IMG/VR virus record: IMGVR_UViG_3300028653_000014
Coordinates: 1-64,000 of that record
DNA from: a virus
DNA: 64,000 nucleotides
Reading direction: 5' to 3' (one strand)
The position numbers and the translations under genes were made by a program. The notes beneath the pieces were generated by a model. That model made no database searches and was not told where the DNA came from. It was given only the letters and a program-made list of their open reading frames with translations. Below, in pieces: positions 7,665-50,342 of this stretch (positions within the stretch are counted from its first letter, which is position 1; each line of letters begins with the position of its first letter).

Positions 7665-9407
7665 TTACTTGCCGCCCATCGGGTAGAGCACGGCGAGGGC
7701 GGCCACGTGCGCGGGGCGCGGGTAGTCGATCAGGCCGAGTGTCTTCAGGTTCGCAAGAAGTTGCGCGAATGTGCCGCCTCCCTTCGCCGTCACGGTATAG
7801 CCCGTCGCCGCTCCCAGATCGATGCGATTGACCGCATCTGGGTAGTGGAGGAGCAACTCGCGGAGAATCTTTCTCTCCGGCTCGGGCAATCGATCGAGCA
7901 CGGCCGAGTGCATCGCCTCGTTCGTTCGGCCGAGGCCGGGATCTTGCGCCAGTGATCGACCGTGCTCCGTCAGCCGCACTGAACCGCGTCCCTGCTCGAT
8001 GAGTCCCGTGCGGGTCATGTCGGCGATGATCTGCGCGAACGTGCCCCCGCCTTTCTTGCTGACCTTGTACCCGGCGACGAAGCCGGTCTGGATACGAGTC
8101 GGCTCCCCGATACCCATAGCCTCGAACCAGCCGAGCGCGTCCAGAACCTTCTGCTCTGGCGCCGTCACGCCGTTCGCAGAGATGTACGGCGTCACCGGCT
8201 TCTGCACCGGCCGATTGCCGACCGGTGCGGGACTCTCCCTCCGAACTGGTGCGTGGATGACCGGCGGTGGGATCGCGACCGTCTCGCCGATCTTGACAGC
8301 GAGAGCCGTAATGCTGCCGAGAGCCTCCGACAGACTCTCCTGCATGTTCGTCAGCCGCGCCAGTTGCGTCTCGTCCACGACCGGGGTAGGCACAGGCACT
8401 TCGACCAGCACCTCGACGGTCTGTCCAACCTCGATGTGCTCGGCGGTCAGCAGGCGTGCTTCGAGATCGCGGATACGCTTCTGGAGTTCCTTCGGGTCGC
8501 TGTCCTTCGCCCGTTGCACCGTCGCCTGCATCTGCTCGCCGAGCGCGTCGAGGTCGAGTTCAGTCCGTGCGGACGGCTCCTGCCGTGACTCGCCCGGCTT
8601 CGGCGTCGCATAGGAGTCGAACGTCCGGATGCGCCGCACCTGCACCTTCTGCAGCATCCCGCGGAGCGGCGACCACACCCAGGCGGTGCCGGTCGGGAGC
8701 GACTGCAGCGACTCGATGACGCCGGAGTCGTCACGGAGATCCTTGTCAGCGATCCAGCCCTTCACCGCCGCCCTTGAGCGCTCCGAGAGTTGCCGCATCG
8801 CGATCAGCGTTTCGATCAGGTCGAGCACGTCCTTGTTCAGCGCCTGAGTCCGCTGGGTAATCATCACGATCCCGAGTCCCCATGCCCGCCCGCGTTTCGC
8901 GATCGTTTCCATCGCCCCCAGTGAACGTGCTGTTTCGCCGCGGGGGTTCTGCGGGGCGAACTCGTCGGCCTCGTCCACAACGAGTAGCAGCGTCGTCCGT
9001 GCGCGGGCCTTGCGGCGGTGGAGATGCTCCAGGAAGTCAGCGACGAACTGGCGCGCCGCCGCCTTCGTCAGCAGGTCGGACAGGTCGAGCACGAACGAAT
9101 GACCCGAGTCGACCACCAGATCAGCGATCAACTTGCCCGCGGTCGGCTCCAACGGCAGGTCGCCGTGCGGGCCGCCGAGGACGTACACCGGAAGCCCTGG
9201 GCCGTCACCTGCAGCGTTCGAACGGAGACCGTTGAAGACGCCATTTGGATCTATGACGACGAAGGGAACCTTCGCGGCATGTGCCTCTTCCAGGATCACA
9301 GCCGCCGTAAAACTCTTCCCGGCACCTCGTGTTGCCACGATGCCCACAGCCTCTGTGACGACATCAAGAGGGAGTGTGAAACCTCGTGCGAGATGGATGT
9401 CGCTCAT
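7665..9407 (-). CDS. HerA/FtsK-type P-loop ATPase (DUF87-like) with two C-terminal winged-helix repeats
   Basis: Walker A ATRGAGKS, Walker B LLVVDEAD, KRGRAWG, TQR; duplicated GY.V..KGGGTFAQ..GLI units. Confidence 0.85.
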   Translation of the reverse strand: MSDIHLARGFTLPLDVVTEAVGIVATRGAGKSFTAAVILEEAHAAKVPFVVIDPNGVFNGLRSNAAGDGPGLPVYVLGGPHGDLPLEPTAGKLIADLVVDSGHSFVLDLSDLLTKAAARQFVADFLEHLHRRKARARTTLLLVVDEADEFAPQNPRGETARSLGAMETIAKRGRAWGLGIVMITQRTQALNKDVLDLIETLIAMRQLSERSRAAVKGWIADKDLRDDSGVIESLQSLPTGTAWVWSPLRGMLQKVQVRRIRTFDSYATPKPGESRQEPSARTELDLDALGEQMQATVQRAKDSDPKELQKRIRDLEARLLTAEHIEVGQTVEVLVEVPVPTPVVDETQLARLTNMQESLSEALGSITALAVKIGETVAIPPPVIHAPVRRESPAPVGNRPVQKPVTPYISANGVTAPEQKVLDALGWFEAMGIGEPTRIQTGFVAGYKVSKKGGGTFAQIIADMTRTGLIEQGRGSVRLTEHGRSLAQDPGLGRTNEAMHSAVLDRLPEPERKILRELLLHYPDAVNRIDLGAATGYTVTAKGGGTFAQLLANLKTLGLIDYPRPAHVAALAVLYPMGGK

Positions 9408-9880
9408 CGCACGATCCTGTGGGCCAGCCGCCAGACAGTCGACTGCGATACGCCGAAGCGAGTCGCAACTGCCCGTTGTGTTTCGCCGTGCGCGACAGCG
9501 GCGCGCACTTCCTCGACCTCAGCATCGGTCAATGTCGCAAGATGCTGGTCGAACCCGCGATGGACTGGCGGTGGGCTGAGGCGCCCCTTCGACTTGCAGT
9601 CCTGCATGTTGTCTGCCTGTGTGCCGAGGAACAGATGATCGAAACGAACGCATAGCGGCGTGTCGCACTTATGAAGAACCCACAGATCGTCAGGCAGTTC
9701 GCCGCCGTGAATCACCCACGAGAGACGATGCGCGTACTCCTGCCGTCCGTCGTTTATCAGCGCGCCGTAACTGCTGCTCGTGGGGCCTGTCCAGAGCCAG
9801 CAGCCCTCGCTTCGCTGAACGCAATGCCAGAATCTCTCCTCGACGGTCGGATCAAGCGTGGTGATAGCGCGTCCGCTCAC
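9404..9880 (-). CDS. free-standing HNH homing endonuclease with C-terminal HTH
   Basis: RFW..CWLWTG..AHRLSW..VLHKCDTPLCVRFDHLFLGTQADNMQD; GTG start at 9880. Confidence 0.9.
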   Translation of the reverse strand: MSGRAITTLDPTVEERFWHCVQRSEGCWLWTGPTSSSYGALINDGRQEYAHRLSWVIHGGELPDDLWVLHKCDTPLCVRFDHLFLGTQADNMQDCKSKGRLSPPPVHRGFDQHLATLTDAEVEEVRAAVAHGETQRAVATRFGVSQSTVWRLAHRIVR

Positions 9881-10776
9881 GCAACGTCCTGACGTTCGAG
9901 CGCGAGAAGCTCGTCGAGCCGTGCCTCTGTCTGCTCGCGCGTCAGATCCTCGTGGAGATACACCCAGGCGTAATAGCCCGCCACGAACGGCTTGAACCAG
10001 TCGGAGTGCTCGCTCGGATAGACACGTTCCATCACGACCTTCGACTGGATCGTCAGGTGACACCGCTGGCAAAGGGCCAGGAGATTCCACCAGGCCAGGT
10101 TCGATTTATCTCCATCGGCGTGATGAACAGTCAATATCCGCCATTCCCCTTCGGTGATGAACCCGTCCTCTACGAAGTGGGATGCGACCCCGTCGACGCC
10201 ACCGTCCCACTTCTCGTCGTCGGGCATCCGAAATCGCACGTCGTAGCCGCCTCCGTAGTGGCGGCACTGCAAGTCGCAGCGCGACCAGCGCCCGCCGGAC
10301 GGTTCGACGCCGAGCATCTTCGCGTCACCCTTCGGGATGTACGGGTGGAGGCAGCGGAGGCAGCGATGACCGGCTTCGAGCCTGACGCGCGCCTTGGCCG
10401 ACCCCATGCCGAGACAGGATGGGCAGACATAGCCAAGCGCGCGTATCTGGGGACGCAGCCGCGTGATCGCCGCGTTGACGTTGAATAAGCCTGATTCAGA
10501 ACCGTTCTCGTACACGGAGAGACCCGATTCGCGATGCGTGACCTTCACACCGTTCCCTCCCTGACCGGCGGAGCGAGAGATGGACGCCGTGCCGCGATCG
10601 ACATCGTAGGCCCACGGATGAATCAGATCACCCGAGCCGCCGCACGTCTGGCAGCAGTTCCAGTCGGGTGGGTAGTCGTTGCGGAAGCGGGCGTCGTGTT
10701 CGCCGCGTGACCGTCTCGGCTCCTTGAAGATAGGAACCTCGGGATAGTCGTCAAGCTCGAACAGACGGTCACTCAC
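9877..10776 (-). CDS. HNH-domain protein with zinc ribbon and release-factor-like insert
   Basis: CQTCGGSG/CPSCLGMG; HRCLRC..LTVHHADGDKSN..NLLALCQRCH. Confidence 0.7.
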   Translation of the reverse strand: MSDRLFELDDYPEVPIFKEPRRSRGEHDARFRNDYPPDWNCCQTCGGSGDLIHPWAYDVDRGTASISRSAGQGGNGVKVTHRESGLSVYENGSESGLFNVNAAITRLRPQIRALGYVCPSCLGMGSAKARVRLEAGHRCLRCLHPYIPKGDAKMLGVEPSGGRWSRCDLQCRHYGGGYDVRFRMPDDEKWDGGVDGVASHFVEDGFITEGEWRILTVHHADGDKSNLAWWNLLALCQRCHLTIQSKVVMERVYPSEHSDWFKPFVAGYYAWVYLHEDLTREQTEARLDELLALERQDVA

Positions 10777-10812
10777 AGGCGGTAGCAGTCTATCCGAACG
10801 AGGGCCGGGCCG

Positions 10813-11727: not shown

Positions 11728-11734
11728 GCGCGCG

Positions 11735-12477: not shown

Positions 12478-12680
12478 GGCTTAGGCCGCCAGATGGCCCA
12501 GAACCCGCACGTCGGGCACTGATGCTGAACGTGCGTCCGCGCCTTCTTCTCCGCCCACGAGTGCCACTGCAGATATCCGTCAGGGGCCTTGGTGTGCTTC
12601 GACGCCTTCGGGCACTCGGCAGCGTTCCGGTAGCCGGGGAACGGCGGCGCGATCAGAAGCTCGGCGGGCGTGCTGGTCAC
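12474..12680 (-). CDS. small zinc-binding protein
   Basis: CP...HT.AP.GYLQW..THVQHQCPTCGFW. Confidence 0.6.
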   Translation of the reverse strand: MTSTPAELLIAPPFPGYRNAAECPKASKHTKAPDGYLQWHSWAEKKARTHVQHQCPTCGFWAIWRPKP

Positions 12681-13252
12681 GACGAGGCCTCTTCGTATGT
12701 CCGATGAGTTGAGATGCGGCGTGCCATTGCGATGAACTCATCCCCCGACATTCGGCCCTTCGTCTTATTGCAATGGAAGCAACACGTGACACAGTTGCTA
12801 TCCGTATAGCCGAGTGACGAATCGTAACGGTCGATGCCGTTATAGGTGAACTGTCCGTAGGCTGAAGGTAACTTCGTCTGGTTCGCCGGAGGCTGGCCGC
12901 AGTAGAAACAAGACCTCCCGAACAAGTCGATCATCACCGCTCGCGATAGATCGAACGAATATCCACGCAGCCGAGCGCCCTGCTTGTAACTGGCGATGAC
13001 ACTGTTCATAGCCGCCTCGCCAGGAGCCAGACCATGCGTTGCACGAATCCGTTCAGCACGTAGGCAGCCGCAACTCTCGCGAGCGCCTCTCTTCAGCACA
13101 TCTCCGTTGACTACCCTTTCCTTGCCGCACGTGCATCGACATCGCCAGTAGTGCCGAAGATGCCCGTCCTTCAGGCGCTTCTCTTTTTCGTATCCGATGA
13201 CCGTCAGTCTGTTTACGACCAGCCCGGTCAAGTCTCTACGTTTACGCGGCAT
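12677..13252 (-). CDS. HNH-type homing endonuclease
   Basis: DLTG...RLTV, WRCRCTCG, SCGC, CFYCG, NGIDRYDSSLGY..NCVTCC..CN..K; lower GC than neighbours. Confidence 0.85.
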   Translation of the reverse strand: MPRKRRDLTGLVVNRLTVIGYEKEKRLKDGHLRHYWRCRCTCGKERVVNGDVLKRGARESCGCLRAERIRATHGLAPGEAAMNSVIASYKQGARLRGYSFDLSRAVMIDLFGRSCFYCGQPPANQTKLPSAYGQFTYNGIDRYDSSLGYTDSNCVTCCFHCNKTKGRMSGDEFIAMARRISTHRTYEEASS

Positions 13253-16834: not shown

Positions 16835-16942
16835 GTCTCCCGCGCTGCTCAACTCACGCGCGCGTGACCCTGCTTCGAGCGCTGGCGCCAACTGAGCGCC
16901 GCGCATCTCAGCCGCCCGCGCTTCACGGTAAAGCCGCCCGAG

Positions 16943-17528
16943 TCAGATGACGTGCTTCCACGTTCGACGCAGAATCATGTCCCTGATCGTCGTGTTCTAC
17001 AACACCATAACTCCTGCCCAGCGAACGCATCGACTCGCCGGATTGATGACGGATGCGTATCTCTCTAACGGTCGCTTCATCGAACTTCGCAAAAGGAAGC
17101 TCTGCGCCGCGTTTTATGAACTCCGGCTTGCGACGTGACGGGTTCTTGTCACCTAGCAGTTTCTTGGACATGGCTGCTCTGGGTTCGATCAGACGGCCTT
17201 TTTTAATCGCATCCTGGGAGTTGTCTGCCCCTGTACCGAGAAAGAGGTGGCCTGGGTTCACGCAGCGCGGATTGTCGCAGTGATGTAGAACCAGGAGTCC
17301 CTCGGGGATTTCTCCGTATGTGACCTCCCACGCCACTCGATGGGCAAGAGCCGTCTTGCCCTTCACCTTGAACTTCCCGTAACTGATCTGGTTCCCTCGG
17401 CGATTAGAAGTCGCCAGCCAGATCCAGCATCCTTCTGAATCTCGTCGGTCAACCTTCATCCAGAACCTCTCGGCGAGAGTCAGGGTCTGAACGAAGCATC
17501 CACCCACGGAAACGACGGGCGCCCTCAT
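16943..17528 (-). CDS. free-standing HNH homing endonuclease (frameshift near 16997)
   Basis: RFWMKV..CWIW..AHRVAW..LHHCDNPRCVNPGHLFLGT..N; the typical tail NTTIRDMILRRTWKHVI is in the +1 frame. Confidence 0.88.
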
Positions 17529-18028
17529 CGAGAGATTTCCCTTCTGTCGGCTGCTTCGATTGCGGCAGGCACGTCTAGCGTTACCTCTCTTATCTCGCGA
17601 CCGCGCATGTCACGAAAGAGTCGCAGAAACTGACCTCTGACCACACCCGGCTCGTCGCTACTACTGAACGCCCTCGACCCACCGACAAGGTCAAGTGCTT
17701 GCCTCACCAATGGATGAGGCGCAGGCGCGCCCTCAGCGCGTTCTAGCGTGCTCTGGCGGGTCCACGCGACGAGGGCTTGCACCTGGCCGAGCGCTTCGGC
17801 TTCGTTCGGCAGGCCGAGCAGATGCTCCGCGCAGGCGGCGCGTATCTGGCCGAGCGTGGGGAACCGGCGCGGGTCGGCGGAGGTGCGGCAGAGATGCACG
17901 ACGGCGGTGTGGAGCAGGTCGACCGGTACGTCTGCGAGGTCGTGGAGGTAGTAGCGGAACGTGTCGGGCGGCACGTTCGCTTCGTAGAACGCGAGCTTCA
18001 GTTCCGCGAGCGCCTCCTGGCGCGTCAC
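17525..18028 (-). CDS. helicase loader/inhibitor G39P-like protein
   Basis: LKLAF..Y...LADVP..L..AV..L......FPTLGQIR pattern; downstream of dnaB. Confidence 0.65.
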   Translation of the reverse strand: MTRQEALAELKLAFYEANVPPDTFRYYLHDLADVPVDLLHTAVVHLCRTSADPRRFPTLGQIRAACAEHLLGLPNEAEALGQVQALVAWTRQSTLERAEGAPAPHPLVRQALDLVGGSRAFSSSDEPGVVRGQFLRLFRDMRGREIREVTLDVPAAIEAADRREISR

Positions 18029-18207
18029 GGCTTCTCTCGCCAACGCCAAACCGGGCTGCCGAGCAGCGGCGTCCTGTGATCCAGGCGGCGTTCGGCGGTC
18101 TCCAGCCACAGCCAGCGGCCCGCGTCGGTCTTGTGAGGCACGAAAGCGAACACGGGATGCCAGCGCTCCAGCCTCTTCTCCCGCGCGATCATCTCGTCGA
18201 GTCTCAC
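18025..18207 (-). CDS. small hypothetical protein
   Basis: WHPVFAFVP....GRWLWLE motif; coupled. Confidence 0.5.
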   Translation of the reverse strand: MRLDEMIAREKRLERWHPVFAFVPHKTDAGRWLWLETAERRLDHRTPLLGSPVWRWREKP

Positions 18208-18716
18208 GGCTGCACCATGTTCCCAAACTTCGCGAAGCGGCGACGCTTCCTGCCTTCGCGCTGGCGTCGGTTGACGCAAGTTCTGCACGCACGATGCCCG
18301 GATGGCGTCCTGATCGTATTCTCCGGGGTGAAGGGGTGGTCGTGCTTGCAGACTTCCGGGGGCTTTCTATGGGCACGAACCTCTTTCGCTGAAGGCCGCA
18401 GACCAACCCGAACGTCGTACTCGTAGTGGTGCTTCGGACAGAGTTCAACGTAACCAGACTCGTCGTGGTACTGATGCGTCAGATGAGCCATGTGGGTGCG
18501 ACCGACAAAATCGCAACCTTCCTGCGTGCATCTTCCGGTCGCAGCCTTGCGAGCGCGGAGATGAAGTGCCTTTTCGCCAGCTTCTGTGCCTTTCCAGTTG
18601 GTTACACCTTCCCCGAAGATTGGGTTGGCTCGTCTCATTTCGATATCGCACTGACGGCATTTAGCCGCGCGTTTCGCACGAAGACCGCGCCCGCACTCGC
18701 ATGGGATCATCTTCAT
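18204..18716 (-). CDS. HNH-like endonuclease with C-terminal CxxxH..C..C finger
   Basis: NWKG..ALH..THMAH..ELCPKHH..YD; CKHDHPFTPENT..RACRTC. Confidence 0.7.
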   Translation of the reverse strand: MKMIPCECGRGLRAKRAAKCRQCDIEMRRANPIFGEGVTNWKGTEAGEKALHLRARKAATGRCTQEGCDFVGRTHMAHLTHQYHDESGYVELCPKHHYEYDVRVGLRPSAKEVRAHRKPPEVCKHDHPFTPENTIRTPSGHRACRTCVNRRQREGRKRRRFAKFGNMVQP

Positions 18717-20065: not shown

Positions 20066-20942
20066 CCGGGAACGCCGCCATCTGCGCCGCTGACAAGCCG
20101 CCTTTGCCGTTCAGGTTAGGCATCTGCTCCAAACCTAGCCAGTAGGACTGGAGCGACAGAGCCGTCATCATCCCGGCAACCTTCGCCGGGTACATCGCCG
20201 CCTTGGCGCGTATCGCCGACGCCAGCGCCGCCGCGAACACATCTGGCTCCTCGTGGCAGCGAGCACACCAGTTCGTTCCGCGCGCCTCATCCTCTCGGAC
20301 GCATTCCACCCAGAACTGCGCGATGATGCCCTGCGTCGTCTTGCCGCCGTACAGCGCCGTGGTCGTCCGATCCCGTGACGCTTTGCTCGCCAGGTCTGTT
20401 CCCGGCACCACTTCGGCTAGGGCGTCGAGCGGCAGGTTTCTGCCGTTGACGCGGGGTATCTTCGGTGGGGTATCGAGCGCGGCGTCAGCCGCTATCTCTT
20501 GCCTTTGCTCTTGATCTTGCACTTGAACTTCTTCTTTTCCAGACAAGGATCGCGCGTGAGGTTCCTCATCGGTGAGGGTAGACGCATGGGTGCGTCCAGG
20601 GGGATCAACGAGCGCCCAGACGTTCGGCAGGTTGACCTTGCCGACCTTCTGGACGTCAATCTCCAGAACGCCTATCTCGGCGAACTCGTTGACGTATCGG
20701 TCGAGTGTGGCAAGCGACACACCGGCCTGCTCAGCGATCTCCTTCCGCGTTGCGGAGAACCCGTCACGGGCCGCAGCGCCGCCTTTCGAGTTAGCCGTCT
20801 CGGTGAACACCAGATAGATGCCCAGAGCGGTGCTGAGTCGTGCTGCCGCGAAGTGCTCACGTACGGCTTTTAGAGCATCGAGGCTTTGGTAGCAGAAGGC
20901 CGGTCTACGCCTGTCCGTTACGGCGGAGGGTTGCGCGCTCAT
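20058..20942 (-). CDS. phage replication initiator (N-terminal winged HTH)
   Basis: ATRKEIAEQAGVSLATLDRYVNEF..G.L, charged linker, directly upstream of dnaB. Confidence 0.7.
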   Translation of the reverse strand: MSAQPSAVTDRRRPAFCYQSLDALKAVREHFAAARLSTALGIYLVFTETANSKGGAAARDGFSATRKEIAEQAGVSLATLDRYVNEFAEIGVLEIDVQKVGKVNLPNVWALVDPPGRTHASTLTDEEPHARSLSGKEEVQVQDQEQRQEIAADAALDTPPKIPRVNGRNLPLDALAEVVPGTDLASKASRDRTTTALYGGKTTQGIIAQFWVECVREDEARGTNWCARCHEEPDVFAAALASAIRAKAAMYPAKVAGMMTALSLQSYWLGLEQMPNLNGKGGLSAAQMAAFPDA

Positions 20943-21514
20943 TGGGGGCGCGACTTCGGTCGGTGAGCGCCACCGTGAAAGTGGATTGCAGAATGACACG
21001 GCCGACAGAGGACGATGAGGTCTTCGCGGTCCTCCTTGCCGACGTTCGCATAGTCGCGATGGTGGACATTGAGTGATCGACCGCTGCCGCACGTGGCGCA
21101 CTTCCCTTTCGCTCTATCGAGTGCCCACTTTCTCTGCTTCGACCATTCCGGTGAAGATAGGTAGTCCCCGTACTGCATCGCCCGCAGTTCACCAACGCGC
21201 TCACTGGACCCGTCCCCCATAGAGGCAAGGGGTGAGTAGACGGATAGTTGCTCATCGACAGCGATGAGCGCCTGGTTGTAACTCTCGCTGCTATACGGGT
21301 CATCCTCGGTCGCGAAAAGGAACTGGTACGTGAGGAAGGCGCTGCAAAGATTCGAGTCGGCGGTGATCTCCAGCCACGTCCGCCACGCGCCGTCTTCGCG
21401 CGTCGGCTCGTAACCGAATCGCTGAACGAAATCAGCTACTAACGAGTCAATCGGGGATCCGTAATCGTGCCCAGTGAGTGGCGTGCGCTCACTGTCAGCC
21501 GGTGCCTGTGGCAT
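20939..21514 (-). CDS. HNH endonuclease
   Basis: Y..YL.SPEW..RK.ALDRA..KCATCG..LNVHHRDY..G.E..DLIVLCRPCH. Confidence 0.85.
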   Translation of the reverse strand: MPQAPADSERTPLTGHDYGSPIDSLVADFVQRFGYEPTREDGAWRTWLEITADSNLCSAFLTYQFLFATEDDPYSSESYNQALIAVDEQLSVYSPLASMGDGSSERVGELRAMQYGDYLSSPEWSKQRKWALDRAKGKCATCGSGRSLNVHHRDYANVGKEDREDLIVLCRPCHSAIHFHGGAHRPKSRPQ

Positions 21515-24305: not shown

Positions 24306-24622
24306 CTCTCCTCCGTCCGGTCGCGCCATACAAGCTCGACCAATCGTCTGTAGAGCGGCTGACTCATCAGCCACTGTTGCGGGGTCATCCGCTCGTGCGC
24401 GTCGAACTCCCGGTCGAACTCGTGGCTTGCCATCTCGGCGGTCGGGGCCGGGCCGTACAGATACTCGGACGCCACCATGTCGTGCAGCGTGACCGCGTGC
24501 CTTCGTAGCCATCGTCTGACGTTGGCCCGGTGGGTCGGCTTCATCATGTCGAGACGTGTCCGGCAACCGTCGTTCGTCGTCCAGTACGTCGCCTGGGACA
24601 GCGTCTCGAACAGATCGGCCAT
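24302..24622 (-). CDS. hypothetical phage protein
   Basis: Coupled between ssb and erf. Confidence 0.6.
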   Translation of the reverse strand: MADLFETLSQATYWTTNDGCRTRLDMMKPTHRANVRRWLRRHAVTLHDMVASEYLYGPAPTAEMASHEFDREFDAHERMTPQQWLMSQPLYRRLVELVWRDRTEER

Positions 24623-40832: not shown

Positions 40833-42257
40833 TCAAGTGGTCCTCGCCGCCTCCAAAGCCGGAAGTAGAAACGGCCTCGGAGCCGTGCGTTTATTCCCCA
40901 CCCAGCCGACACCGCCCCCGCGCTTCGGATAAGCATGGGCCGTATTTCCATGCCCGAGTTCGACGTACGAGTTGCTCACCACCACGCCGTTCGCCAAAAA
41001 CGAGTGAACGCCGTTTACGGCGAGGTCGTACAGGCTGGCGTGCCATGTCCCCTTTGACTTCGCCGCCTCGTCTCCGTAACGCCATGTCCTCAGAATGGTG
41101 GCCGGGACGACGCGGAATCTTTCAGGATCGACATATGACTTCGGGCCTGGGTTGCACACGACATAGCGAACGCCCGCTAGAGGCTCTGGATCAATCGGCT
41201 CGAACGGCGGACGTGCCTTGTCGTAGAAATGAATGTGCGTGATCTCCACGCCGGGACAGAGGCGCAGGAGTTCTCGATCGCGCTCGATGTCTTTCTTCTG
41301 ATCACGGTGCCAGTAGCCGCCGTCGGCCTCGATGATCTCGCGGCGCTCTGCATCGAAGAAGTCAACGATGTAGTCACCAATCGGCACCTGGCGCTCGTAG
41401 TTCACTCCACGCTCATCAAGCCATGCGGCGACCTCGTACTCAGGTCGCGTCTCATGTCCCAACGCGGAAAGCTGTCTGTTCAGCCTGGCGCCCTGCTGAC
41501 TTCGCTTCGCCGCCTCGGAAATCTTCTGGCGCGTAGCGTCAGAGCGGATGGCCCCAAGATGCGGATTCGCCCCGGCCGCCCATGCCTCATCCCGGCAGGC
41601 GGTGGAGCAATACCGCTTTCCTTGATTACGATGTGCGTCGAGGCAGTGATCGCACGTCTTTAGCAGTGCTGTTCCCTTGTTGTGAGCGAGTTTGCGCGTG
41701 GAATACAGCATGTCTCCATCGCGCAGGTCACCCGCGAAGATCCACTGATTACGCTCATCGCGCAGAACGAGAACGCGGTGATCGAGCGTCAGAGTGACTT
41801 GGTGAGTTCGATCTGATCTCCACGGCACTTCGATATCGATGAGTTCTGGCTTCTCGACTGCCGGAAAAGACCACTTCCCGACGATCGGCTGGAAGTCTCC
41901 AGCCTGAGTGAGGACCTCTTCGCCTATCTCGATCTGACCGATAGTCCGCGGACCAGTTCTAGTCGTGATCACAGTGTGCGCGTCGAAGACGCAGGCGTAA
42001 CTGACGTTCGAGCCGATGTCGACATACGGGCCTTGCGAGTCGGCGCCTACCCGGTAGCCGATCGACGAACGGAGACGGCCGGTGATGACGTTCGGCCCCG
42101 GCCGCCCCGTCGCGTTCGTCTTCGCGGCAGCCTCAACCCGGACGGCGCGCTTCACCAAGTCGACCACGATCGCTTCGTTGAGCACCCGTGTGAACGCGGC
42201 AGCGTCGATCTGGAACTGGCCGAGCGTCGCCTGAATCTGGACATCGAGGACGCTCAC
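40833..42257 (-). CDS. HK97 gp10-like neck/tail protein containing an intein
   Basis: AK.NA..P.V.TGRLRSSI..IGSNVSYA|...|SYVELG..APRPFLLPAL. Confidence 0.85.
   Translation of the reverse strand: MSVLDVQIQATLGQFQIDAAAFTRVLNEAIVVDLVKRAVRVEAAAKTNATGRPGPNVITGRLRSSIGYRVGADSQGPYVDIGSNVSYACVFDAHTVITTRTGPRTIGQIEIGEEVLTQAGDFQPIVGKWSFPAVEKPELIDIEVPWRSDRTHQVTLTLDHRVLVLRDERNQWIFAGDLRDGDMLYSTRKLAHNKGTALLKTCDHCLDAHRNQGKRYCSTACRDEAWAAGANPHLGAIRSDATRQKISEAAKRSQQGARLNRQLSALGHETRPEYEVAAWLDERGVNYERQVPIGDYIVDFFDAERREIIEADGGYWHRDQKKDIERDRELLRLCPGVEITHIHFYDKARPPFEPIDPEPLAGVRYVVCNPGPKSYVDPERFRVVPATILRTWRYGDEAAKSKGTWHASLYDLAVNGVHSFLANGVVVSNSYVELGHGNTAHAYPKRGGGVGWVGNKRTAPRPFLLPALEAARTT
40971..41993 (-). mobile_element. 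intein (341 aa) with DUF559/Vsr-like endonuclease
   Basis: CVFDAHTVI block A, TLDH block B, LYDLAV..HSFLANGVVVSN/S end; E...RQVPI..YIVDF..IIEADGGYWH. Confidence 0.88.
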
Positions 42258-43172: not shown

Positions 43173-43317
43173 ACCTATGCGCGAAGGGAGACATGCGATC
43201 CCTTCACGGGATAGACTACTACACCGGGTAACGCGCGCGTGACTTAGCGGAACGCAGTAGATTGCGGCTATCGCCGCTGAGACTAGATACCTCGGCCCGA
43301 ACCTATCTGGCTTCTGC

Positions 43318-44220
43318 ATGTGCGGATGCGGTCAGAAGACCAATCTCGCCCGGTACAACGATCACGAGAAGGGGTATGTGCTCGGTCAGCCGATGCGCTA
43401 TCGCCTCGGCCACGCCTTGGCGCGCACGCCGGTTATGCCGCTCGTGGCTCCTAATCCGTCCGGCTATTGCGAATGCGGATGCGGCGCAAGCACGCCCGCG
43501 GCGAAGAGAACCAATCGTCAGTTCGGACATCTAAAGGGACACCCCGTCCGCTTCATAGCAGGTCATCAACTCAGGAATCTCTGGGAGCCGTCCCAAAATC
43601 TCACTGCTCTCTGTGCTTGCGGGTGCGGTGGTCGGACGCGTTCAGTGAAATGGGGGAACGCCTCCAAAGGGCTTTCCCGCGGTCAGGCTCAGAAGTTCAT
43701 CCGCGGCCATCAACAGCGGAAACCAGTCGCAATCCAGGAAGACGAATATCTAGTCGCCGATCTCGGCTTCGACACTCCATGTTGGGTCTATCTCGGCCTG
43801 CTCGACCCGAAGGGCTACGGCATTCGGCACCGAACCGGAACGGGCACCGCACGTGCTCACCGTCAGTCGTACACGGAGTTCGTTGGTCCTATCCCATCAG
43901 GGAAGTCAATCCATCATCGTTGTCGTCACCCCGCGTGCATCAACCCAACGCATCTCGAAGCCATGCCAGTCTCCGAGAACACCGAACTCACACGAGGAAC
44001 TCGACCGCCCCGCGCTGTCCGTCTACGTGTCTTTGAACGAGACGGTCACCGTTGCCGACGATGCGGTGTGACGAAGGAACTCAGCATCGACCACATCGTG
44101 CCGCTCTGTCGCGATGGCACCCACGACGAGGCGAATCTTCAGACTCTCTGCCGCTCATGCAACAGCAAAAAGGGCCGCTACTACTTCCTCGACGAACGCC
44201 TCGCTACAGCAACCCTCTAA
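43318..44220 (+). CDS. free-standing endonuclease with three CxCGCG repeats and two HNH cores
   Basis: IHHRCRHPACINPTHL and SIDHIVP..NLQTLCRSCNSKK; antisense to the late operon. Confidence 0.88.
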   Translation: MCGCGQKTNLARYNDHEKGYVLGQPMRYRLGHALARTPVMPLVAPNPSGYCECGCGASTPAAKRTNRQFGHLKGHPVRFIAGHQLRNLWEPSQNLTALCACGCGGRTRSVKWGNASKGLSRGQAQKFIRGHQQRKPVAIQEDEYLVADLGFDTPCWVYLGLLDPKGYGIRHRTGTGTARAHRQSYTEFVGPIPSGKSIHHRCRHPACINPTHLEAMPVSENTELTRGTRPPRAVRLRVFERDGHRCRRCGVTKELSIDHIVPLCRDGTHDEANLQTLCRSCNSKKGRYYFLDERLATATL

Positions 44221-45401
44221 GACGAGTAGTCGGTACCAACGGCGCGAGCGAAAGTCTGCAAGTCAGGCGAGAAAACGGCCCCTTGACGACCTCGTCGCTG
44301 TCCCCCGGCGTATGCCTGCAAGAAAAGATCGGTGCTGACCAGACCAGTTGCCTTCGTTGGGTCAGCCCAATTTTGGACGAGACCTCTGTCAACTTCTATT
44401 CCTTGCCGCACGACACGGGTGGCGCCCGCGGGCAGCAGACAGTCCTTCCCGTTGCAGGCCAGCCACAACTGGTTCGCGATCTCGGTCGCGGCAGCACGGC
44501 CCAACTGGGGCGGGTCGATGCCCCACTGGTACTGGATCGAGAACGTGCCCGGCTGGTCGTCGTCCAAACTCATGTCCTGGCAGCCGGGCCACCAGTTCGG
44601 CTCTGACGGGTCCCCGGGCGTGTCCATCCGCACGAGTTGCCGCCACTTGTCGAGCCGCCAGTTCCGGGCGCCCGTGTCAGGGTCGAACTCCAGCAGCGGC
44701 ACCCCGCCGATCAGCACATCCAGGATCTTCCTCACCGGGTAGCCGCCGAGCCGGACGATCGACATCGGCGCGCACCCGAACTTGTCGCCGACCTCGTTGT
44801 ACCAGGCCCAGCCGCCACCGCCGCCCCACGGCGCCGTCTGCCAGTACCACGGCCCCCACCCGTACGAGACAGGCCCCGTGAGCCAGCAGCCGCACGCCTG
44901 GCTGCACGGACGCACCTTCCGCTGACACAGACCAGGGAAGCGGCGTCCTGAAATCTCGTAGAGCGCCATCGACGCCTCGAACGCGACCGTGTCGAACGCG
45001 GCCGGGTTGGAACCGTAGTTGAACTGCACACAGGCGGCGACGTCCTCCCCTGTGATCCAACTGAAGCACGGCCCCAACGTCGGGCCGTCAGGGACGCTCC
45101 CGGGAGGGTCGACCGCGGACGGGATCACGAACACCGTCCCGTAGATCGTCTCCGTCACCGTCGACCCCTGATACCCCGTCGACCGCCACCGGTACTCGCC
45201 GATCAGGGCAGGCACCCCGAGCGCGCACTCCCAATAGTCCGGCGCCGGGTTCGTCACCGCCGCATCGACGCCCGACGTGAACGTCAGCACCGTCTTGTCC
45301 GGCTGCTCCAACTGGAACACAACCTCGGACGGGGACGGCTCCCCCTCCTGCCCGAACGTGGCGTCAAGAACGACCGGGTTGCCTTCGGTGACGGTACTCA
45401 T
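44217..45401 (-). CDS. head-tail adaptor with N-terminal Ig-like domain
   Basis: AS..LY..SGRRFPG.C...VRP, WPGCQD, G.DPP..G..AA..A, LP.....V.RQG motifs. Confidence 0.75.
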   Translation of the reverse strand: MSTVTEGNPVVLDATFGQEGEPSPSEVVFQLEQPDKTVLTFTSGVDAAVTNPAPDYWECALGVPALIGEYRWRSTGYQGSTVTETIYGTVFVIPSAVDPPGSVPDGPTLGPCFSWITGEDVAACVQFNYGSNPAAFDTVAFEASMALYEISGRRFPGLCQRKVRPCSQACGCWLTGPVSYGWGPWYWQTAPWGGGGGWAWYNEVGDKFGCAPMSIVRLGGYPVRKILDVLIGGVPLLEFDPDTGARNWRLDKWRQLVRMDTPGDPSEPNWWPGCQDMSLDDDQPGTFSIQYQWGIDPPQLGRAAATEIANQLWLACNGKDCLLPAGATRVVRQGIEVDRGLVQNWADPTKATGLVSTDLFLQAYAGGQRRGRQGAVFSPDLQTFARAVGTDYSS

Positions 45402-45473: not shown

Positions 45474-45881
45474 CTACCGGCCGAGATGCAGGAGTCTGTG
45501 ATGCCGGATGCAAAGCCAGCGAACGTCGAGCGGCTTCGAGTAATCATCGTGATGCGCGTGAATCCTTCCAGAGCAGTCGTCGGACTCTCGCTCACATGGC
45601 TGAGGAACAAGATCACCGCGCGCAACGGCATTGAGCACGCGACTTCTAGCAACGATCTTTTCCGGCTCCCGCTTCTTACGTTCCAGCTTCTTCTGCGCCC
45701 ACTCGTCGGAGTGACGGTGATAGGACGCTCGTGCTGCCGCCCGGTGCTGATCTCGATGCCCGACGACCCACTTGTGGTGACGTGCAGCATTCGCTTCCCG
45801 ACACTTTTCACACCTGCATTTGTGTCGTTCGTAGAAGTTGCGCGTACCGTGTCGTGGGTCGTCGGGGTCAAAATCGGTCAC
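45474..45881 (-). CDS. HNH-like endonuclease
   Basis: HGT..Y..HKCRCEKC; NAVARG.L..PCE..IHAHHDDYSKPLDVRWLC..HH. Confidence 0.8.
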   Translation of the reverse strand: MTDFDPDDPRHGTRNFYERHKCRCEKCREANAARHHKWVVGHRDQHRAAARASYHRHSDEWAQKKLERKKREPEKIVARSRVLNAVARGDLVPQPCERESDDCSGRIHAHHDDYSKPLDVRWLCIRHHRLLHLGR

Positions 45882-45890: not shown

Positions 45891-46538
45891 TTACGTAATT
45901 GGAGCGCTTTGGTACCCGCAGACAGCCGTCGGGACGGCCGTGTCGTAGAACCAGGCACCGTTCGGCTGGATCGCCTCCGGCACGTCCGCGTAAATCCCCA
46001 TCCCCCAGTTGCCGTTCGCGACGGTGAAGCCAGTGAACTTCGGCTGAGAGAAGTCGTTCTGGGCCGTGTCCGCGCCGCGCTGCCAGCGAGACGACGGGAA
46101 CACGTAACGGCGATACGGGTACGGCGCCGACGGCTCGTGGTCGCAGTCCCACAGATCCTGCCACGCCTCGAACGCCGCGTACGGCTGCTGAGAGCCGCAA
46201 GGCACCTTGAACTGCACGCCGATCGGGAACCCGCCACCGTCGGTGATGACCGGTGCGCCCGTCAGCAACTCCTCCAGGCCCGGCTCCAGCACGCCCTGGT
46301 CGAGTTCGAGGTTGAACCGCTTCAGGATGTCCTGACCCCGGTACGTGTTCAGAAGCTGGTCGCAGCCGCCCTTCTGGTCCTTCACCTCGCCCGCCAGCAC
46401 GTCAGGCGTGATCGTCAACTGGATCGGCTTGTCGCTGACGTAGAGGTTGTTCGGTCCCGCGATGGGGTTGCCGAGCGCATCCACGCGAGTCGCCCGGATG
46501 TAGCAAAGATGGATCGCTCCATCACAGATTGCAGGCAT
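45891..46538 (-). CDS. major tail tube protein
   Basis: RATRVD..G.P..G, AFEAW, Y..YVFP, F.G....N.NWG.G; GAGGGG SD; very high GC3. Confidence 0.8.
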   Translation of the reverse strand: MPAICDGAIHLCYIRATRVDALGNPIAGPNNLYVSDKPIQLTITPDVLAGEVKDQKGGCDQLLNTYRGQDILKRFNLELDQGVLEPGLEELLTGAPVITDGGGFPIGVQFKVPCGSQQPYAAFEAWQDLWDCDHEPSAPYPYRRYVFPSSRWQRGADTAQNDFSQPKFTGFTVANGNWGMGIYADVPEAIQPNGAWFYDTAVPTAVCGYQSAPIT

Positions 46539-46576: not shown

Positions 46577-47623
46577 TCAGGAACCCGTGTTGCAGTCCGT
46601 AGAGCAACGATCCACCAGGACGGCCGCTTGTAACACGACGTCCCACACCGCCGAGTAGTAGCGTTCGGCCCGGTAGGTGAACGTGTTCGGGCGGCCATTC
46701 GTGGCGCCACTTGATGTGCCGCGGTCGAGCGCCTCCGTGCGGGTGTCCGGTGTCGTGAAGATGTCAGAGCGGCGCAGATCGACCGGGCCTGTCGCGTACG
46801 CCCACTCCTCAGTCGGGCCGGGTGTCGGATGACCGACAGGGGTCGACACGCCGACATAGCCGCCATCGGGGATGACCACGTTCCCGTTGATCGTCCGGAT
46901 GACCCCGGTCTTGTCCTGGATCACGAAGCCGGTGCCCAGGAGGGCGGTCGCCATCATCGGGGAGCAGTGGATAACCCCGAGCGAACCCGTCAGGCCGATC
47001 GCGGCCTCCAGAATCTGCAGTGCATGGTTCGGTCTCGTCGCGACGTTGCCGTTCGGGAACGTCCCCATCCCGTCCGCCAGATACGGCTGCGAGGACAGGG
47101 TCGCGCCCGACATGAACTCGCGCGCGACCGCGAACGACTCCTTCGCCGCTATCGCGACGACCGCGCGGGCACGGAACGCCGCCTCGTCCGGCACCTGCTG
47201 CGACGTACACGTGATCGACTGGACGACCGTCAGCGTGTTGAACTCCGGCGGGGTCGCGTTCGAGCCGAACGACTTCTGTACCGGGTGCGCGGCACACGCG
47301 TCCCACACCGACGGGGCATCCTCCGGGTACGGGTACACCGCGACACCGTTCAGCCAGCGTTCGCGGCCCGCGAGATCCGGCACATACACCTGCTCGTCCG
47401 GCGCGCTCGGAACCCGCAGCCAGATCGACCCGTCGGCTTTGCGATACAGGCCCGGCTCCAGAGAGCCGTCCTGGCCGATCGTTGAGTCGTCCACCGGGCC
47501 GATCGTCGTGTCGACGACGATCCTCACACCCGCCGCATCCGACGCCGCCGCCGGGACAAGCCCATGTACTGGCGGAATCGGTAGGGGGCCATCTACGCGC
47601 CAGGTCGGGAAGTTCGCGTTCAC
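46577..47623 (-). CDS. minor capsid/head decoration protein
   Basis: W.NGV..P, ...T..GN.V...GGY, W.YATGPV..R, N.....AER motifs; follows the capsid gene. Confidence 0.7.
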   Translation of the reverse strand: MNANFPTWRVDGPLPIPPVHGLVPAAASDAAGVRIVVDTTIGPVDDSTIGQDGSLEPGLYRKADGSIWLRVPSAPDEQVYVPDLAGRERWLNGVAVYPYPEDAPSVWDACAAHPVQKSFGSNATPPEFNTLTVVQSITCTSQQVPDEAAFRARAVVAIAAKESFAVAREFMSGATLSSQPYLADGMGTFPNGNVATRPNHALQILEAAIGLTGSLGVIHCSPMMATALLGTGFVIQDKTGVIRTINGNVVIPDGGYVGVSTPVGHPTPGPTEEWAYATGPVDLRRSDIFTTPDTRTEALDRGTSSGATNGRPNTFTYRAERYYSAVWDVVLQAAVLVDRCSTDCNTGS

Positions 47624-47643
47624 GCCGCCCCCCTAAATGAGGT

Positions 47644-47676
47644 AAAATAAATGCCGGGACGTATCCGCGTCCCGGC
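47644..47676 (-). terminator. intrinsic terminator downstream of the capsid gene
   Basis: GCCGGGAC-loop-GTCCCGGC followed by ATTTATTTT on the minus strand. Confidence 0.65.
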
Positions 47677-47709
47677 CCTCAACTGGGCCACATCAACCAG
47701 GGAGAAGAC

Positions 47710-48486
47710 GTGACCAGCAGCGAGCTTTGCACCTGCACCCTTTGCACGGCAGGCGAGCCTGTTCCGTACGGCACCTGCCACTGCGCGTGCGGCGAGAAAA
47801 CGAACCCGGCGCCGTTCACGAACCCCGCCAGGGACTACGTGAAGGGCGAGCCGGTGAAGTACGTCAAGGGCCACGGCTCCCGCTCGAAGGACTGGAAGAA
47901 GCGTTGGAACAGCGAGGGACCAAACCCATCCGGCATCTGCCAGTACAACGGCTGCGATCAGCCGACCCTGCTCTCCGCGAACACCGTGTGGCATCTCGGG
48001 ATCATCCGAGGAGAGCCGCTCCGTATGTGCCCTAAACACAAGCACCCCGGACGGAAGAAGGCCACTCTCACCTTCGACATTGAGGATCGTGGATACATCA
48101 GCGACGAAGGGGTGGCTAGCGACTGCCACATCTTCAATCGTGACGCCCGCGACGGGAAGAACGGCGTATACGGAGTCATCGGCGGAAAGTCGCGGCTCGC
48201 CCATATCGTCGCATGGGAAGCGCTCAACGGCGCTCTGCCGCGCGGTCTCACCCTCGACCATCTCTGCGAGATCAAACTCTGCGTCAACCCCGATCATCTC
48301 CGCCTCTCCACTAGAGCGGTACACGCCAAGCGGCACGCTGACCTGCGGATTGACAAGAACGTGATCTCGGCTATCCGCGACGCCCTGCGTACAAGTGATC
48401 TCACTCAGAAGCAGATCGCCGCGAAGTTCGGCGTCAGCCTCAGCTACGTGGGCAGAGTCCGCTCCGCCATGAAGCGCGAGTCCTAG
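47710..48486 (+). CDS. free-standing HNH endonuclease with C-terminal HTH
   Basis: AHIVAWE..LDHLCEIKLCVNPDHL; TQKQIAAKFGVS; antisense to the late operon. Confidence 0.88.
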   Translation: MTSSELCTCTLCTAGEPVPYGTCHCACGEKTNPAPFTNPARDYVKGEPVKYVKGHGSRSKDWKKRWNSEGPNPSGICQYNGCDQPTLLSANTVWHLGIIRGEPLRMCPKHKHPGRKKATLTFDIEDRGYISDEGVASDCHIFNRDARDGKNGVYGVIGGKSRLAHIVAWEALNGALPRGLTLDHLCEIKLCVNPDHLRLSTRAVHAKRHADLRIDKNVISAIRDALRTSDLTQKQIAAKFGVSLSYVGRVRSAMKRES

Positions 48487-48596
48487 ACTCCCACCGCCAA
48501 GAGCGACCGAGCGGTCGTGCCCTCCCGCCGATAAAGGCTGGAAGGCACGACCGCTTTTCTCTTCCGTAATACTCACTGAGATTAATCAGTCAGTAA

Positions 48597-50342
48597 TTAC
48601 GAGTGATTCTGGTAGGAGTAGGGACAATCCCCAACAGCGACCGGAAGCGAAACGGCTCCGTTATCGCAAACGAATGTCTCGACCGCAAGTGACTCCACAC
48701 CAACGTAGGCCACATTTTCGAAACTTTCGCCGAAAAGTTGGAAATTGTTAAGCGCATTGAGTACGCTATCCCGTACAATTCCCAACTCCAAAACTCCGCC
48801 GTCCAAATAGAGGAACGACCCCTCGGGGAAGAGGTACCAGACGACGGTCGGCGGGAACGTCAGGAGCGCCCCGTTCGCCTGGGTGCCGAACACCTGGCCG
48901 CGGCCGTTGGCGCCGTCGATGTAGTACGTCGGCTCGATCCCGAACGAGCGGAGCAGAGCCGTGACCTTCGCCTCGTCCGTGTCGAATCGCTGGAACTGGC
49001 CGCGGATGACGTCGGACACGATCAGGTCGACGGCCCAGTAGGGGATCATCAGCCTGAGGATCGCGCCCGGGTCCATCCGGTTGCGGTTCCGGAGGCCGTT
49101 CGCCGCAGCCAGGATCTGGCTGAACAGCGTGGCCGAGGCGCCCAGCCCGAGCGACCCTGCGGTCACCTGGGTCGAGAACGCGTCGATCTGGGTCAGGAGG
49201 TTCGACTCGGCCAGGCGAGCGTGGGCGGCGAGCACCAGGTTGTTCCACTGCGCGACAAGCTCCGGGAACGCGCGCGCCCCGAGGTTGCCGAACTGCAGGC
49301 AGTGGTAGATGATGTCGACGTCGGTCTCCTGGAACGGCGGGCACGGGATCGTCTGGCACGACTTCGTGGCCGACGAGCCGCCCGCGGCGTCCTGCGTCTC
49401 GGTGATGAGGCCGACACCCGTCGTGACCGCCGAGAGGGCGGCCGGGCGTGCGTAGCGGAGACCGCCACGGTCAGCGTTGAACGACGGGAGGGCGCCCATC
49501 ACGGGCCGGGTCGGCACCGAGATGTACTGCAGGTTGTAGTACGGCGTCACGGGGGCGCAGAGACCGCCGGACGCGACCAGCGAGTCGGGGGCGCCGTCGA
49601 GTTGCATCTTCTTCCGCTTCTCGAACTCGGCGTTGATGATGCTCTTCGACGTGACGGACGCGACGAGATTCATGTTCTGCTCGATCGACTGTCCGAGCAG
49701 ACGCGACTCAGGGTACTGGTCGTGCCAGTCGAACCGGCCGATCGTGAACTTCTCGTTCGTGTCCGGCCCGGCCTGCCCGAACGCCCGCTGGCGGTCGATC
49801 ATCGCCTGGGCGAGGTCGAGGTCGGAGGTGAACTGGCTTCCCGGCACCCGGTCGGGGGCACCCGCGGCGGCCGTCAGCGCGATCGGCTTCTCCGTCGGCT
49901 CGTACTCGACGGGGGTGCGGTCGGCGGACGGGCGCGGCAGACGGCCACGCACGACAGGCTTCGCGGCAGCCGTGACGGCCGCTGCTTCCTCGACCGGCTC
50001 GGCAGGCTCCTCCGGCTCCTCCGGCGTCTCAGCCGCGGCAGTCGCGAGGTCAGCGAACGCGGCCTTGTCCTCGTCGGACAACTCGACCGGCTCGGCGGGC
50101 GTCTCAGCCCTGGTCGCTGCGGCGGCCTTCAGAGACTTCACAGTCTCGATGGCGGCCTTCGTCTCGTCCAGCAGGTTCGCGGTCGTGTACTCCGCGGTGA
50201 TGAACTGGAGCGGGTTCGACGTGACGTCGCTGATCGCAAGCTCGTACGAGGCGATCAGACTCGCGAGGTCTTCGTCGGAAAGGGATGCGATGTCGTCTGG
50301 GACGGGCGCGAACAGCGGCTCGTCCAGGTTCTCGTTCTCCAT
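48597..50342 (-). CDS. major capsid protein with N-terminal scaffold domain
   Basis: SLVASGGLCAP..Y, LP.F...RGG, LDGG.L.LGIVRDS.LN..N.F..F.E.FE; AAGGAGG SD before ATG 50342. Confidence 0.9.
   Translation of the reverse strand: MENENLDEPLFAPVPDDIASLSDEDLASLIASYELAISDVTSNPLQFITAEYTTANLLDETKAAIETVKSLKAAAATRAETPAEPVELSDEDKAAFADLATAAAETPEEPEEPAEPVEEAAAVTAAAKPVVRGRLPRPSADRTPVEYEPTEKPIALTAAAGAPDRVPGSQFTSDLDLAQAMIDRQRAFGQAGPDTNEKFTIGRFDWHDQYPESRLLGQSIEQNMNLVASVTSKSIINAEFEKRKKMQLDGAPDSLVASGGLCAPVTPYYNLQYISVPTRPVMGALPSFNADRGGLRYARPAALSAVTTGVGLITETQDAAGGSSATKSCQTIPCPPFQETDVDIIYHCLQFGNLGARAFPELVAQWNNLVLAAHARLAESNLLTQIDAFSTQVTAGSLGLGASATLFSQILAAANGLRNRNRMDPGAILRLMIPYWAVDLIVSDVIRGQFQRFDTDEAKVTALLRSFGIEPTYYIDGANGRGQVFGTQANGALLTFPPTVVWYLFPEGSFLYLDGGVLELGIVRDSVLNALNNFQLFGESFENVAYVGVESLAVETFVCDNGAVSLPVAVGDCPYSYQNHS

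Follow-up and report, generated by a model that had tools for sequence, protein, structure and literature searches.

Recoded gene ends beside free-standing HNH genes in a GC-rich uncultured phage: probable homing endonuclease cassettes

The stretch of DNA analyzed here, hereafter the window, comprises the first 64 kb of the 83,069-base IMG/VR virus record IMGVR_UViG_3300028653_000014, with a GC content of 64.9% and an estimated completeness of 86%. Most genes lie on the minus strand, and typical genes carry G or C at 80–90% of their third codon positions (GC3). Four free-standing genes with an HNH_3 nuclease domain adjoin a major capsid gene, a head-tail adaptor gene, a gene of family phrog_9804, and a HerA-like ATPase gene, and the facing end of each of these neighbors switches abruptly to codons ending in A or T (A/T3). 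An earlier note, made from the letters of the window, had drawn attention to these tracts and suggested that each nuclease gene travels with a recoded end of its target gene. Near-identical DNA occurs in contigs from many rhizosphere metagenome runs, with at least half of the sampled words present in 14 of the 24 runs listed; eight of these 14 may have been the source samples.

Results

Sharp recoded tracts at the ends of conserved genes

The four hand counts of A/T-ending codons in the earlier note were reproduced exactly (Table 1). Each tract differs from the adjoining part of its gene (Fisher p from 2e-15 to 3e-7), and when A/T3 labels were shuffled within the gene, 0 of 2000 shuffles reached the observed log-likelihood ratio (LLR) in each of the four. 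The edges proved as sharp as described. A single change-point likelihood places the switch after codon 519 in the capsid gene (2-unit support 516–523; position 48809), after codon 332 in the adaptor gene (320–333; 44405), after codon 234 in the phrog_9804 gene (230–235; 17746), and after codon 72 in the HerA-like gene (67–76; 9191), with support intervals spanning 6 to 14 codons. The description of the adjoining parts as almost purely G/C-ending suits the capsid gene, where the A/T3 background outside the tract is 4%, and fits HerA more loosely, at 14%. Conserved motifs lie within the tracts, as had been noted: capsid residues L521–N537 are invariant in all five aligned capsids, and the Walker A motif of the ATPase (GAGKS, residues 28–32) is intact.

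Each tract abuts a genuine HNH gene, the HNH_3 matches of the four neighbors scoring 40.4–53.5 bits against a Pfam cut-off of 24.8. All four are stand-alone open reading frames (ORFs) with a homing-type nuclease domain, as expected of free-standing homing endonuclease genes. The names of the capsid (phrog_777), adaptor (phrog_783), ATPase (DUF87/HerA), and DnaB genes were confirmed. The name "G39P-like" given to the fourth target gene found no support; its sole match is phrog_9804, a family of unknown function. Within this long ORF, the initial ~140 codons have a low-complexity translation, overlap other genes, and look non-coding, and the gene probably spans about 17525–18022.

Shorter tracts had been described in two further genes. 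The one at the 3' end of dnaB is real, with 0 of 2000 within-gene shuffles matching its contrast, and it adjoins the HNH-like gene at 18204–18716. The one at the 3' end of the major tail gene (45891–46538) is not significant (5/11 versus 26/204; 119 of 2000 shuffles match).

Table 1. Recoded tracts, target genes, nuclease genes, and neighboring features of the window
Feature	Position	Strand	Remarks
Recoded tract, capsid last 70 codons	48600-48809	-	32/70 A/T-ending; covers invariant LDGGVLELGIVRDSVLN motif
Major capsid gene (phrog_777 major head protein)	48597-50366	-	9/219 A/T3 in the 219 codons preceding the tract
Recoded tract, adaptor last 62 codons	44220-44405	-	30/62 A/T-ending versus 17/182 adjoining
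Head-tail adaptor gene (phrog_783)	44217-45401	-	
Recoded tract, last 73 codons of phrog_9804 gene	17528-17746	-	34/73 A/T-ending versus 10/94 adjoining
Recoded tract, HerA/DUF87-like ATPase first 72 codons	9192-9407	-	32/72 A/T-ending versus 32/228; includes Walker A
HerA/DUF87-like ATPase gene	7665-9407	-	
Short tract, dnaB last 14 codons	18716-18757	-	9/14 A/T-ending versus 45/436
Free-standing HNH_3 gene with C-terminal helix-turn-helix (HTH)	47710-48486	+	Convergent on capsid gene
A/T-rich spacer between convergent capsid and HNH genes	48487-48596	.	Stops in all frames; hairpin with 20-bp arms at 48510-48555
Free-standing gene with HNH_3 and HNH domains	43318-44220	+	Convergent on adaptor gene; stop codons overlap
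Free-standing HNH_3 gene	16923-17528	-	Directly downstream of phrog_9804 gene; start overlaps its stop
Free-standing HNH_3 gene with HTH	9404-10090	-	Directly upstream of ATPase gene, ATGA overlap
Weaker HNH-like ORF	9877-10776		Near the 9404-10090 gene
HNH-like gene (phrog_826, phrog_1492)	18204-18716	-	Between dnaB and phrog_9804 gene
Endonuclease-like gene (phrog_2340)	45474-45881	-	Between major tail and adaptor genes; flanks without significant tract
Endonuclease VII/HNH-like gene (phrog_1035, phrog_374)	12677-13252	-	Without flank tract
HNH gene (PF01844, 27.1 bits; several HNH PHROGs)	20939-21514	-	Without strong flank tract
Intein-bearing neck/tail-completion gene (HK97 gp10-like; Hint plus DUF559/Vsr-like nuclease)	40833-42257	-	Low GC3 at 41118-41963
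C-extein of neck/tail-completion gene	40833-40964	-	A/T3 16/44 versus 5/44 in the intein-free G002 homolog

Tracts accompany the nuclease gene among relatives

The relatives compared were IMG/VR and metagenome loci (G and L labels), and many are near-duplicates, a circumstance that makes the counts below overstate independence; the absence of an HNH gene was judged by tblastn with the HNH proteins of the window and the capsid-side HNH protein of relative G001 only. Both limits lessen the force of the association. The capsid comparison drew on 26 IMG/VR loci and 2 usable metagenome loci; the metagenome scan yielded four loci only, two near-identical ones covering just the 5' part of the capsid gene. 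One mis-framed locus (L024) was left out, and three others (L005, L020, and L023), with 4–7/70 A/T3 in the last 70 capsid codons, stop short of the downstream gene. Within-genome tract lists for G001, G002, and G004 were noisy, as over-extended ORF starts mimic 5' tracts, and aligned orthologous codons were used instead.

At the capsid site, an HNH homolog (32–36% identity) lies on the opposite strand directly after the capsid gene in relatives G001 and L040 only. The capsid tract is present in all three HNH-bearing genomes (window, 32/70; G001, 29/70 versus 24/200; L040, 26/70 versus 14/200) and in none of the 20 HNH-free relatives, in all of which the next structural gene directly follows the capsid gene. 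In 18 of these 20, the last 70 codons hold 0–10 A/T3; the HNH-free locus L028 reaches 24/70 but is uniformly low in GC3 and shows no contrast. At the adaptor site, 36 of 38 loci were scorable, and both an adjacent HNH gene and a tract occur in G001 only (29/60 A/T3; 20/30 in the last 30 codons). The pairing is thus found in 2/2 HNH-bearing genomes, the window and G001, and the tract in 0/35 HNH-free relatives, which show 0–16/60 A/T3, or 22/60 without contrast in a locus of 57% GC. For HerA, eight relatives showed no HNH match within 2 kb and no 5' tract (3–12/70 A/T3), and the window is the only HNH-bearing genome (1/1). Usable relatives of the phrog_9804 gene were searched for, and none was found. 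Gene order is otherwise kept and the HNH gene is sporadic at the capsid, adaptor, and HerA sites, as is characteristic of homing elements. The earlier note had named low-GC3 tracts in HNH-free relatives as one observation that would speak against it; these were looked for at the three sites and found in 0/20, 0/35, and 0/8 relatives, and the tie between tracts and HNH genes stands. Furthermore, a tract-blind scan against the HNH-poor genomes G002 (5,745 codons) and G004 (7,394 codons) returned, as A/T3-rich stretches private to the window, the capsid, adaptor, and HerA tracts and nothing else.

The claim of a notably constant tract length did not hold beyond the window. The four window tracts measure 62–73 codons, and homologous cassettes of relatives are shorter: about 48–50 codons for the capsid tract in G001 and L040, and about 30 codons for the adaptor tract in G001. 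The capsid tract of the window begins 21 codons earlier than theirs.

Relatives are also visible in the metagenomes. In four rhizosphere runs, contigs of relatives read CTG TAC CTG where the window reads CTC TAT TTG (48806, 48807, 48810); the differing codons are the first of the capsid tract, and the relatives keep the unrecoded spelling. One 273-base contig matches 48793–48946 with 19 differences and then diverges. Contigs over the tract, spacer, and HNH gene are mostly 145–630 bases long and none bridges the tract, and gaps in depth there are no evidence either way.

Some observations on relatives stand apart. The HNH-free locus L029 (G005), with 13/70 versus 8/200, carries a 20-codon A/T3 patch about codons -40 to -20 from the capsid stop, possibly what is left of a cassette since lost. 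In L040, a metagenome relative, two more HNH_3 homologs lie in tandem (6041–7069) past the capsid gene's downstream neighbor, in addition to the one beside the capsid gene. Toward the 3' end of its dnaB homolog, G001 carries a private A/T3-rich stretch (193–387; 37/65); it lies at the very start of the contig, so that any adjoining gene is cut off. In L036/G004 (70286–72712), the HerA-like frame stays open for some 200 codons ahead of the conserved start, with low GC3 (83/146 A/T3), an extension that may be an in-frame inserted gene or an ORF artefact.

A homing interpretation

In our view, the four HNH_3 genes probably represent free-standing homing endonuclease cassettes with a co-inherited, presumably cleavage-resistant flank, and the HNH-like gene after dnaB is probably likewise a free-standing homing endonuclease gene. 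Free-standing endonucleases cleave at sites hundreds to thousands of bases away from the gene that encodes them, and the flanks undergo co-conversion, which accounts for marker exclusion (PMC2988022); a recipient turns resistant as donor sequence replaces the site (PMC12724721). The tracts fit this established model, as the earlier note proposed. That the nucleases are active, where they cut, that the recoded allele resists them, and that gene conversion takes place are all inferred. The predicted nuclease would cut or nick the ordinary G/C-rich spelling of the gene end in element-free relatives infecting the same host, and the break would be repaired with the element-bearing genome as template. 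Repair would copy both the nuclease gene and its re-spelled flank, the latter being spared by the nuclease; because both are copied together, the flank (190–220 bases, on one side) would stay linked to the nuclease gene and share its evolutionary regime.

The intein in the neck/tail-completion gene provides a parallel that adds to this reading, as it shows a one-sided A/T3-rich flank like the HNH tracts. Its C-extein is enriched relative to the intein-free homolog (Table 1), and the N-extein shows no such difference (13/88 versus 10/88 in G002).

Ancestry of the capsid cassette

Protein trees of the capsid tract (53–61 columns) and of the upstream 260 residues are congruent. Both trees join the window to L005 and L007 (support 90 and 98) and make sisters of G001 and L040 (92 and 93). 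Two closer relatives known as proteins only, P0002 and P0122, share the capsid tract residues of the window, and together with the congruent trees this leaves import of the capsid tract from a distant lineage unsupported. Of the close relatives known as proteins, P0002 stands at 87% identity and P0003 at 77%, and P0122 and P0124 belong to the 90% cluster. Tract enrichment of residue differences is weak (P0002, 8/70 versus 11/290, p=0.017; P0122, none). Two candidate origins were set aside. A distant donor had been considered because identity to L005/L007 falls from 0.87–0.90 to 0.80–0.82 in the tract, but was dropped in view of the tree congruence. L028, of 55% GC over the locus and uniformly A/T3-rich, was rejected as a donor, its tract protein being the least similar (29/56).

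A near-identical cassette in another genome was looked for, and none was found. The INPHARED phage search returned four Arthrobacter phages only, each with ~100 bases of the capsid gene at 73–77%. The recoded flank is private to HNH-bearing genomes and has the codon usage of nuclease genes, but with congruent trees, no near-identical cassette, and no visible transfer event, the travel of each element as a unit stays a conjecture. The three HNH-bearing genomes differ in how they spell the capsid tract, with 4/32 same-residue codons shared between the window and G001, and the HNH proteins of the capsid-side cassettes are 32–40% identical. The capsid cassettes are either old and lineage-inherited, or separate entries.

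Nature of the recoding and rival explanations

Comparison of aligned codons with the nearest HNH-free relatives upheld the description of the tracts as synonymous recoding: the protein is conserved across them, and differences from a G/C-ending to an A/T-ending codon are up about ten-fold. Such differences number 22/49 in the capsid tract versus 11/234 upstream, 17/36 versus 5/105 outside in the adaptor, and 24/46 versus 12/160 outside in HerA. Three to four leucines of the capsid tract have changed from CTC to TTG, and a serine within the invariant IVRDS motif from TCC to AGC; the adaptor and HerA tracts resemble the capsid tract in their codon changes. Pooled over the tracts, codon usage lies far from that of phage-typical genes (p=2e-38) and near that of the nuclease genes (p=0.014), and the A/T3 of the tract equals that of its own HNH gene in three of four cases. 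A gradient of A/T3 from the tract into the HNH gene was considered and dropped, being present for 47710–48486 only and not for the other three.

These data also bear on a mutational origin. If the phage's own or sibling genomes were nicked near the HNH gene, error-prone repair and deamination could load G/C-to-A/T changes locally while selection purged residue changes, and a synonymous A/T3 tract would arise in place rather than be carried in. Consistent with such mutagenesis, the tract protein is native to the clade according to the congruent trees, and the excess changes in the capsid tract run from G/C to A/T and are mostly transitions (C>T 13 and G>A 4–6, versus C>A 2–3 and G>T 2), with C<->G not raised. 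The tract lengthens the terminal branch of the window 3.6-fold (0.10 versus 0.028), and the different recoding of the three HNH-bearing capsid alleles points the same way. Against it, the A/T3 density within the tracts is flat (in the capsid, 4, 6, 5, 5, 4, 5, and 3 per ten codons) and ends at a sharp edge instead of a gradient, the tract level matches that of the nuclease gene in three of four cases as one compositional block would, and the leucine and serine changes require more than one step. We regard mutagenesis as decidedly unlikely.

The homing interpretation itself leaves a puzzle, in that the flank has the codon usage of a nuclease gene though its protein is native to the clade, and this despite the strong codon bias of the capsid gene. 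One answer would be that recoding was selected as a non-homology spacer, ensuring that no crossover splits the nuclease gene from the resistant site and that repair must copy the nuclease. About two-thirds of same-residue codons in the capsid tract differ in the third base (14–15 of 49–51 identical), while upstream two-thirds are identical (146–155 of 226–234); the tract also persists in the most codon-biased gene of the phage, richer in A/T3 than its own HNH gene, and for T4 elements, it has been noted that resection must reach homology past the endonuclease gene for inheritance (PMC2988022). However, A/T3 of 44–48% is no higher than in a neutral block with nuclease-gene codon usage, whereas selection for maximal mismatch should push A/T3 further and raise C<->G changes, and tract lengths vary among homologous cassettes. 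Such a spacer is, in our judgment, quite improbable. It can also be supposed that the ~200-base flank as a whole is no passive conversion scar but an evolved, selected component of the element, a non-homology block that forces copying of the nuclease gene and prevents uncoupling, kept at nuclease-gene codon usage even in the most codon-biased gene. Given the agreement of the protein trees, its re-spelling would have taken place in the lineage of the phage itself. We think this unlikely. Were it so, the comparable tract lengths in four unrelated genes would point to a length set by mechanism, for example by resection or minimal homology search.

Association within the genome and its limits

Every end of every gene of at least 130 codons was scanned, with a strong tract defined as LLR>10 and proximity as 150 bp. 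Strong end tracts occur at 5/11 ends within 150 bp of a nuclease-like gene, compared with 2/96 other ends (Fisher p=8e-5). The tract lies on one side of each HNH gene only (LLR 28.5 versus 3.1, 22.7 versus 2.0, and 13.6 versus 3.0). Whole genes with low GC3 are almost all nuclease-like or of the intein type.

Beyond the limits on counts given above, several observations weigh against homing. The capsid tract is richer in A/T3 than its own HNH gene (32/70 versus 51/259, p=2e-5), which a single imported block would not predict. Given the congruent trees, vertical descent of the gene end and HNH gene together explains the distribution equally well, and a search of IMG/VR for a close relative of the capsid-side HNH gene found none. 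In the end scan, the nuclease-like genes at 12677–13252, 20939–21514, and 45474–45881 show no strong flank tract. Conversely, strong tracts occur in the N-terminal 86 codons of a ParB-like gene (4881–5138; 46/86 A/T3) and in codons 16–154 of an ERF recombinase gene (24234–24650; 70/139 A/T3); a nuclease gene within 150 bp was looked for at both, and none is present. Additionally, a wider sample took in 80 IMG/VR loci with HNH_3 relatives. The 28 of them with a GC content of 60% or more provided 37 flanking genes that could be scored, and 3/37 carry a strong tract at the proximal end (p<1e-4), one being the capsid gene of G001. HNH_3 genes thus do not generally come with such a tract, and many of them are probably not homing genes.

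The ParB-like and ERF tracts invite the view that low GC3 marks scars of module exchange at mosaic junctions, where nuclease genes merely land or persist. In G001, the aligned-codon scan found six private A/T3 stretches, one only near a detected HNH gene, and private tracts lie 1.6–23 kb from any detected HNH; furthermore, nuclease genes at the boundaries of genetic exchange have been described (PMC10448857). Speaking against coincidence, the tracts recode a conserved protein with no domain swap, they always face the HNH gene, and they occur in 3/3, 2/2, and 1/1 HNH-bearing genomes versus 0/20, 0/35, and 0/8 HNH-free ones. We find this mosaic origin very improbable.

The ParB-like and ERF blocks may be swapped N-terminal domains or over-extended ORFs; the low-GC3 block of the ERF gene stops exactly at the start of the ERF domain. 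Two internal low-GC3 stretches lie at 54799–55539 and, beyond the window, at 68302–68994.

Nuclease genes and cassette surroundings

A fifth HNH_3 gene above the Pfam cut-off lies beyond the window (82528–83046), and HTH domains occur in two of the four tract-adjoining HNH_3 proteins. The hairpin in the spacer after the capsid gene is likely a two-way terminator. On the far side of the capsid-side HNH gene (47624–47709), a terminator-like hairpin (47676–47653) lies on the capsid strand, and a promoter-like site (47619–47648) faces the HNH gene; the cassette looks as if it had been inserted between the capsid gene and the capsid's original terminator. Both convergent HNH genes contain 35-base repeats (43297–43628, three copies; 47920–47954, one copy), which encode zinc-ribbon-like CxC..GCG units (PxGxCxCGCG) that also align in the HNH protein of G001. 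In the HNH_3 protein at 9404–10090, CVRFDHL stands where four other aligned HNH proteins have C[VI]NPxHL, and one motif residue may have been lost.

Discussion

Against the high G/C background at third codon positions, the flank of each homing nuclease stands out with a resolution of a few codons. This yields four or five predicted target regions, located in the capsid, adaptor, ATPase, and helicase genes, for uncharacterized HNH_3 nucleases, and the window phage together with G002, L005, and similar relatives offers natural pairs of presumed resistant and sensitive alleles. Selfish nucleases can, on this reading, override strong codon bias in essential phage genes, and the case offers material on whether the co-inherited flank is no more than a scar or serves the element in some way. 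Furthermore, sliding GC3 in GC-rich phages could be a cheap means of detecting the targets of homing endonucleases.

I-HmuI and I-HmuII are HNH_3-type, intron-encoded enzymes that nick near the insertion site. As reported by Goodrich-Blair and Shub in 1996, these enzymes of the Bacillus phages SPO1 and SP82 are said to favor flanking markers. They resemble the window nucleases in family and in the preferential inheritance of adjacent sequence, but the window genes are free-standing instead.

The Seg and Mob genes of T-even phages, known for "intronless homing" and marker exclusion, are similar: a free-standing nuclease gene lies sporadically between essential genes, the enzyme cuts at a distance in a conserved neighbor, and the flank is co-converted with markers riding along (PMC2988022, PMC2790892). 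The Mob genes are HNH genes, a further likeness to the window nucleases (PMC2988022, PMC2790892). In contrast, the window belongs to an uncultured GC-rich soil phage, its flank is a sharp codon-usage block of 62–73 codons, and there are four to five cassettes in one genome, with no discordance in the protein trees.

The WHO elements at yeast FBA1 (Coughlan et al. 2020, PMC7282813) come close in organization, the unit being a nuclease gene with a resistance-conferring 3' end of an essential gene, which repeated homing replaces. The WHO nuclease is LAGLIDADG/intein-derived with a zinc finger, whereas the window nucleases are HNH_3; WHO elements leave downstream relics of the old gene end, whereas the 110- and 86-base spacers around the capsid-side HNH gene hold no capsid-end frame; FBA1 gives conflicting trees for its 5' and 3' parts, whereas the capsid tract and body trees of the window agree; and WHO elements concern gene 3' ends, whereas one of the four window tracts, that of HerA, is a 5' end (PMC7282813).

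Homing endonuclease gene (HEG) islands likewise place such genes beside capsid, replication, and other essential genes and mark the edges of exchange (Barth et al. 2023, PMC10448857). There, however, the unit is more than 10 kb of high identity between phages, compared with a recoded end of about 0.2 kb here, and no shared near-identical block was found for the window cassettes (PMC10448857). Co-conversion footprints of mitochondrial introns also show host-gene diversity shaped locally by a homing element (Repar and Warnecke 2017, PMC5378118); those elements are intron-borne in organellar genomes, whereas the window cassettes are free-standing in a phage.

A full-text literature search, covering articles without their supplements, did not find codon-usage blocks beside HNH genes in GC-rich phages, which is not proof of their absence. 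Set beside these systems, the cassettes of the window are unusually legible instances of an already known type of homing element.

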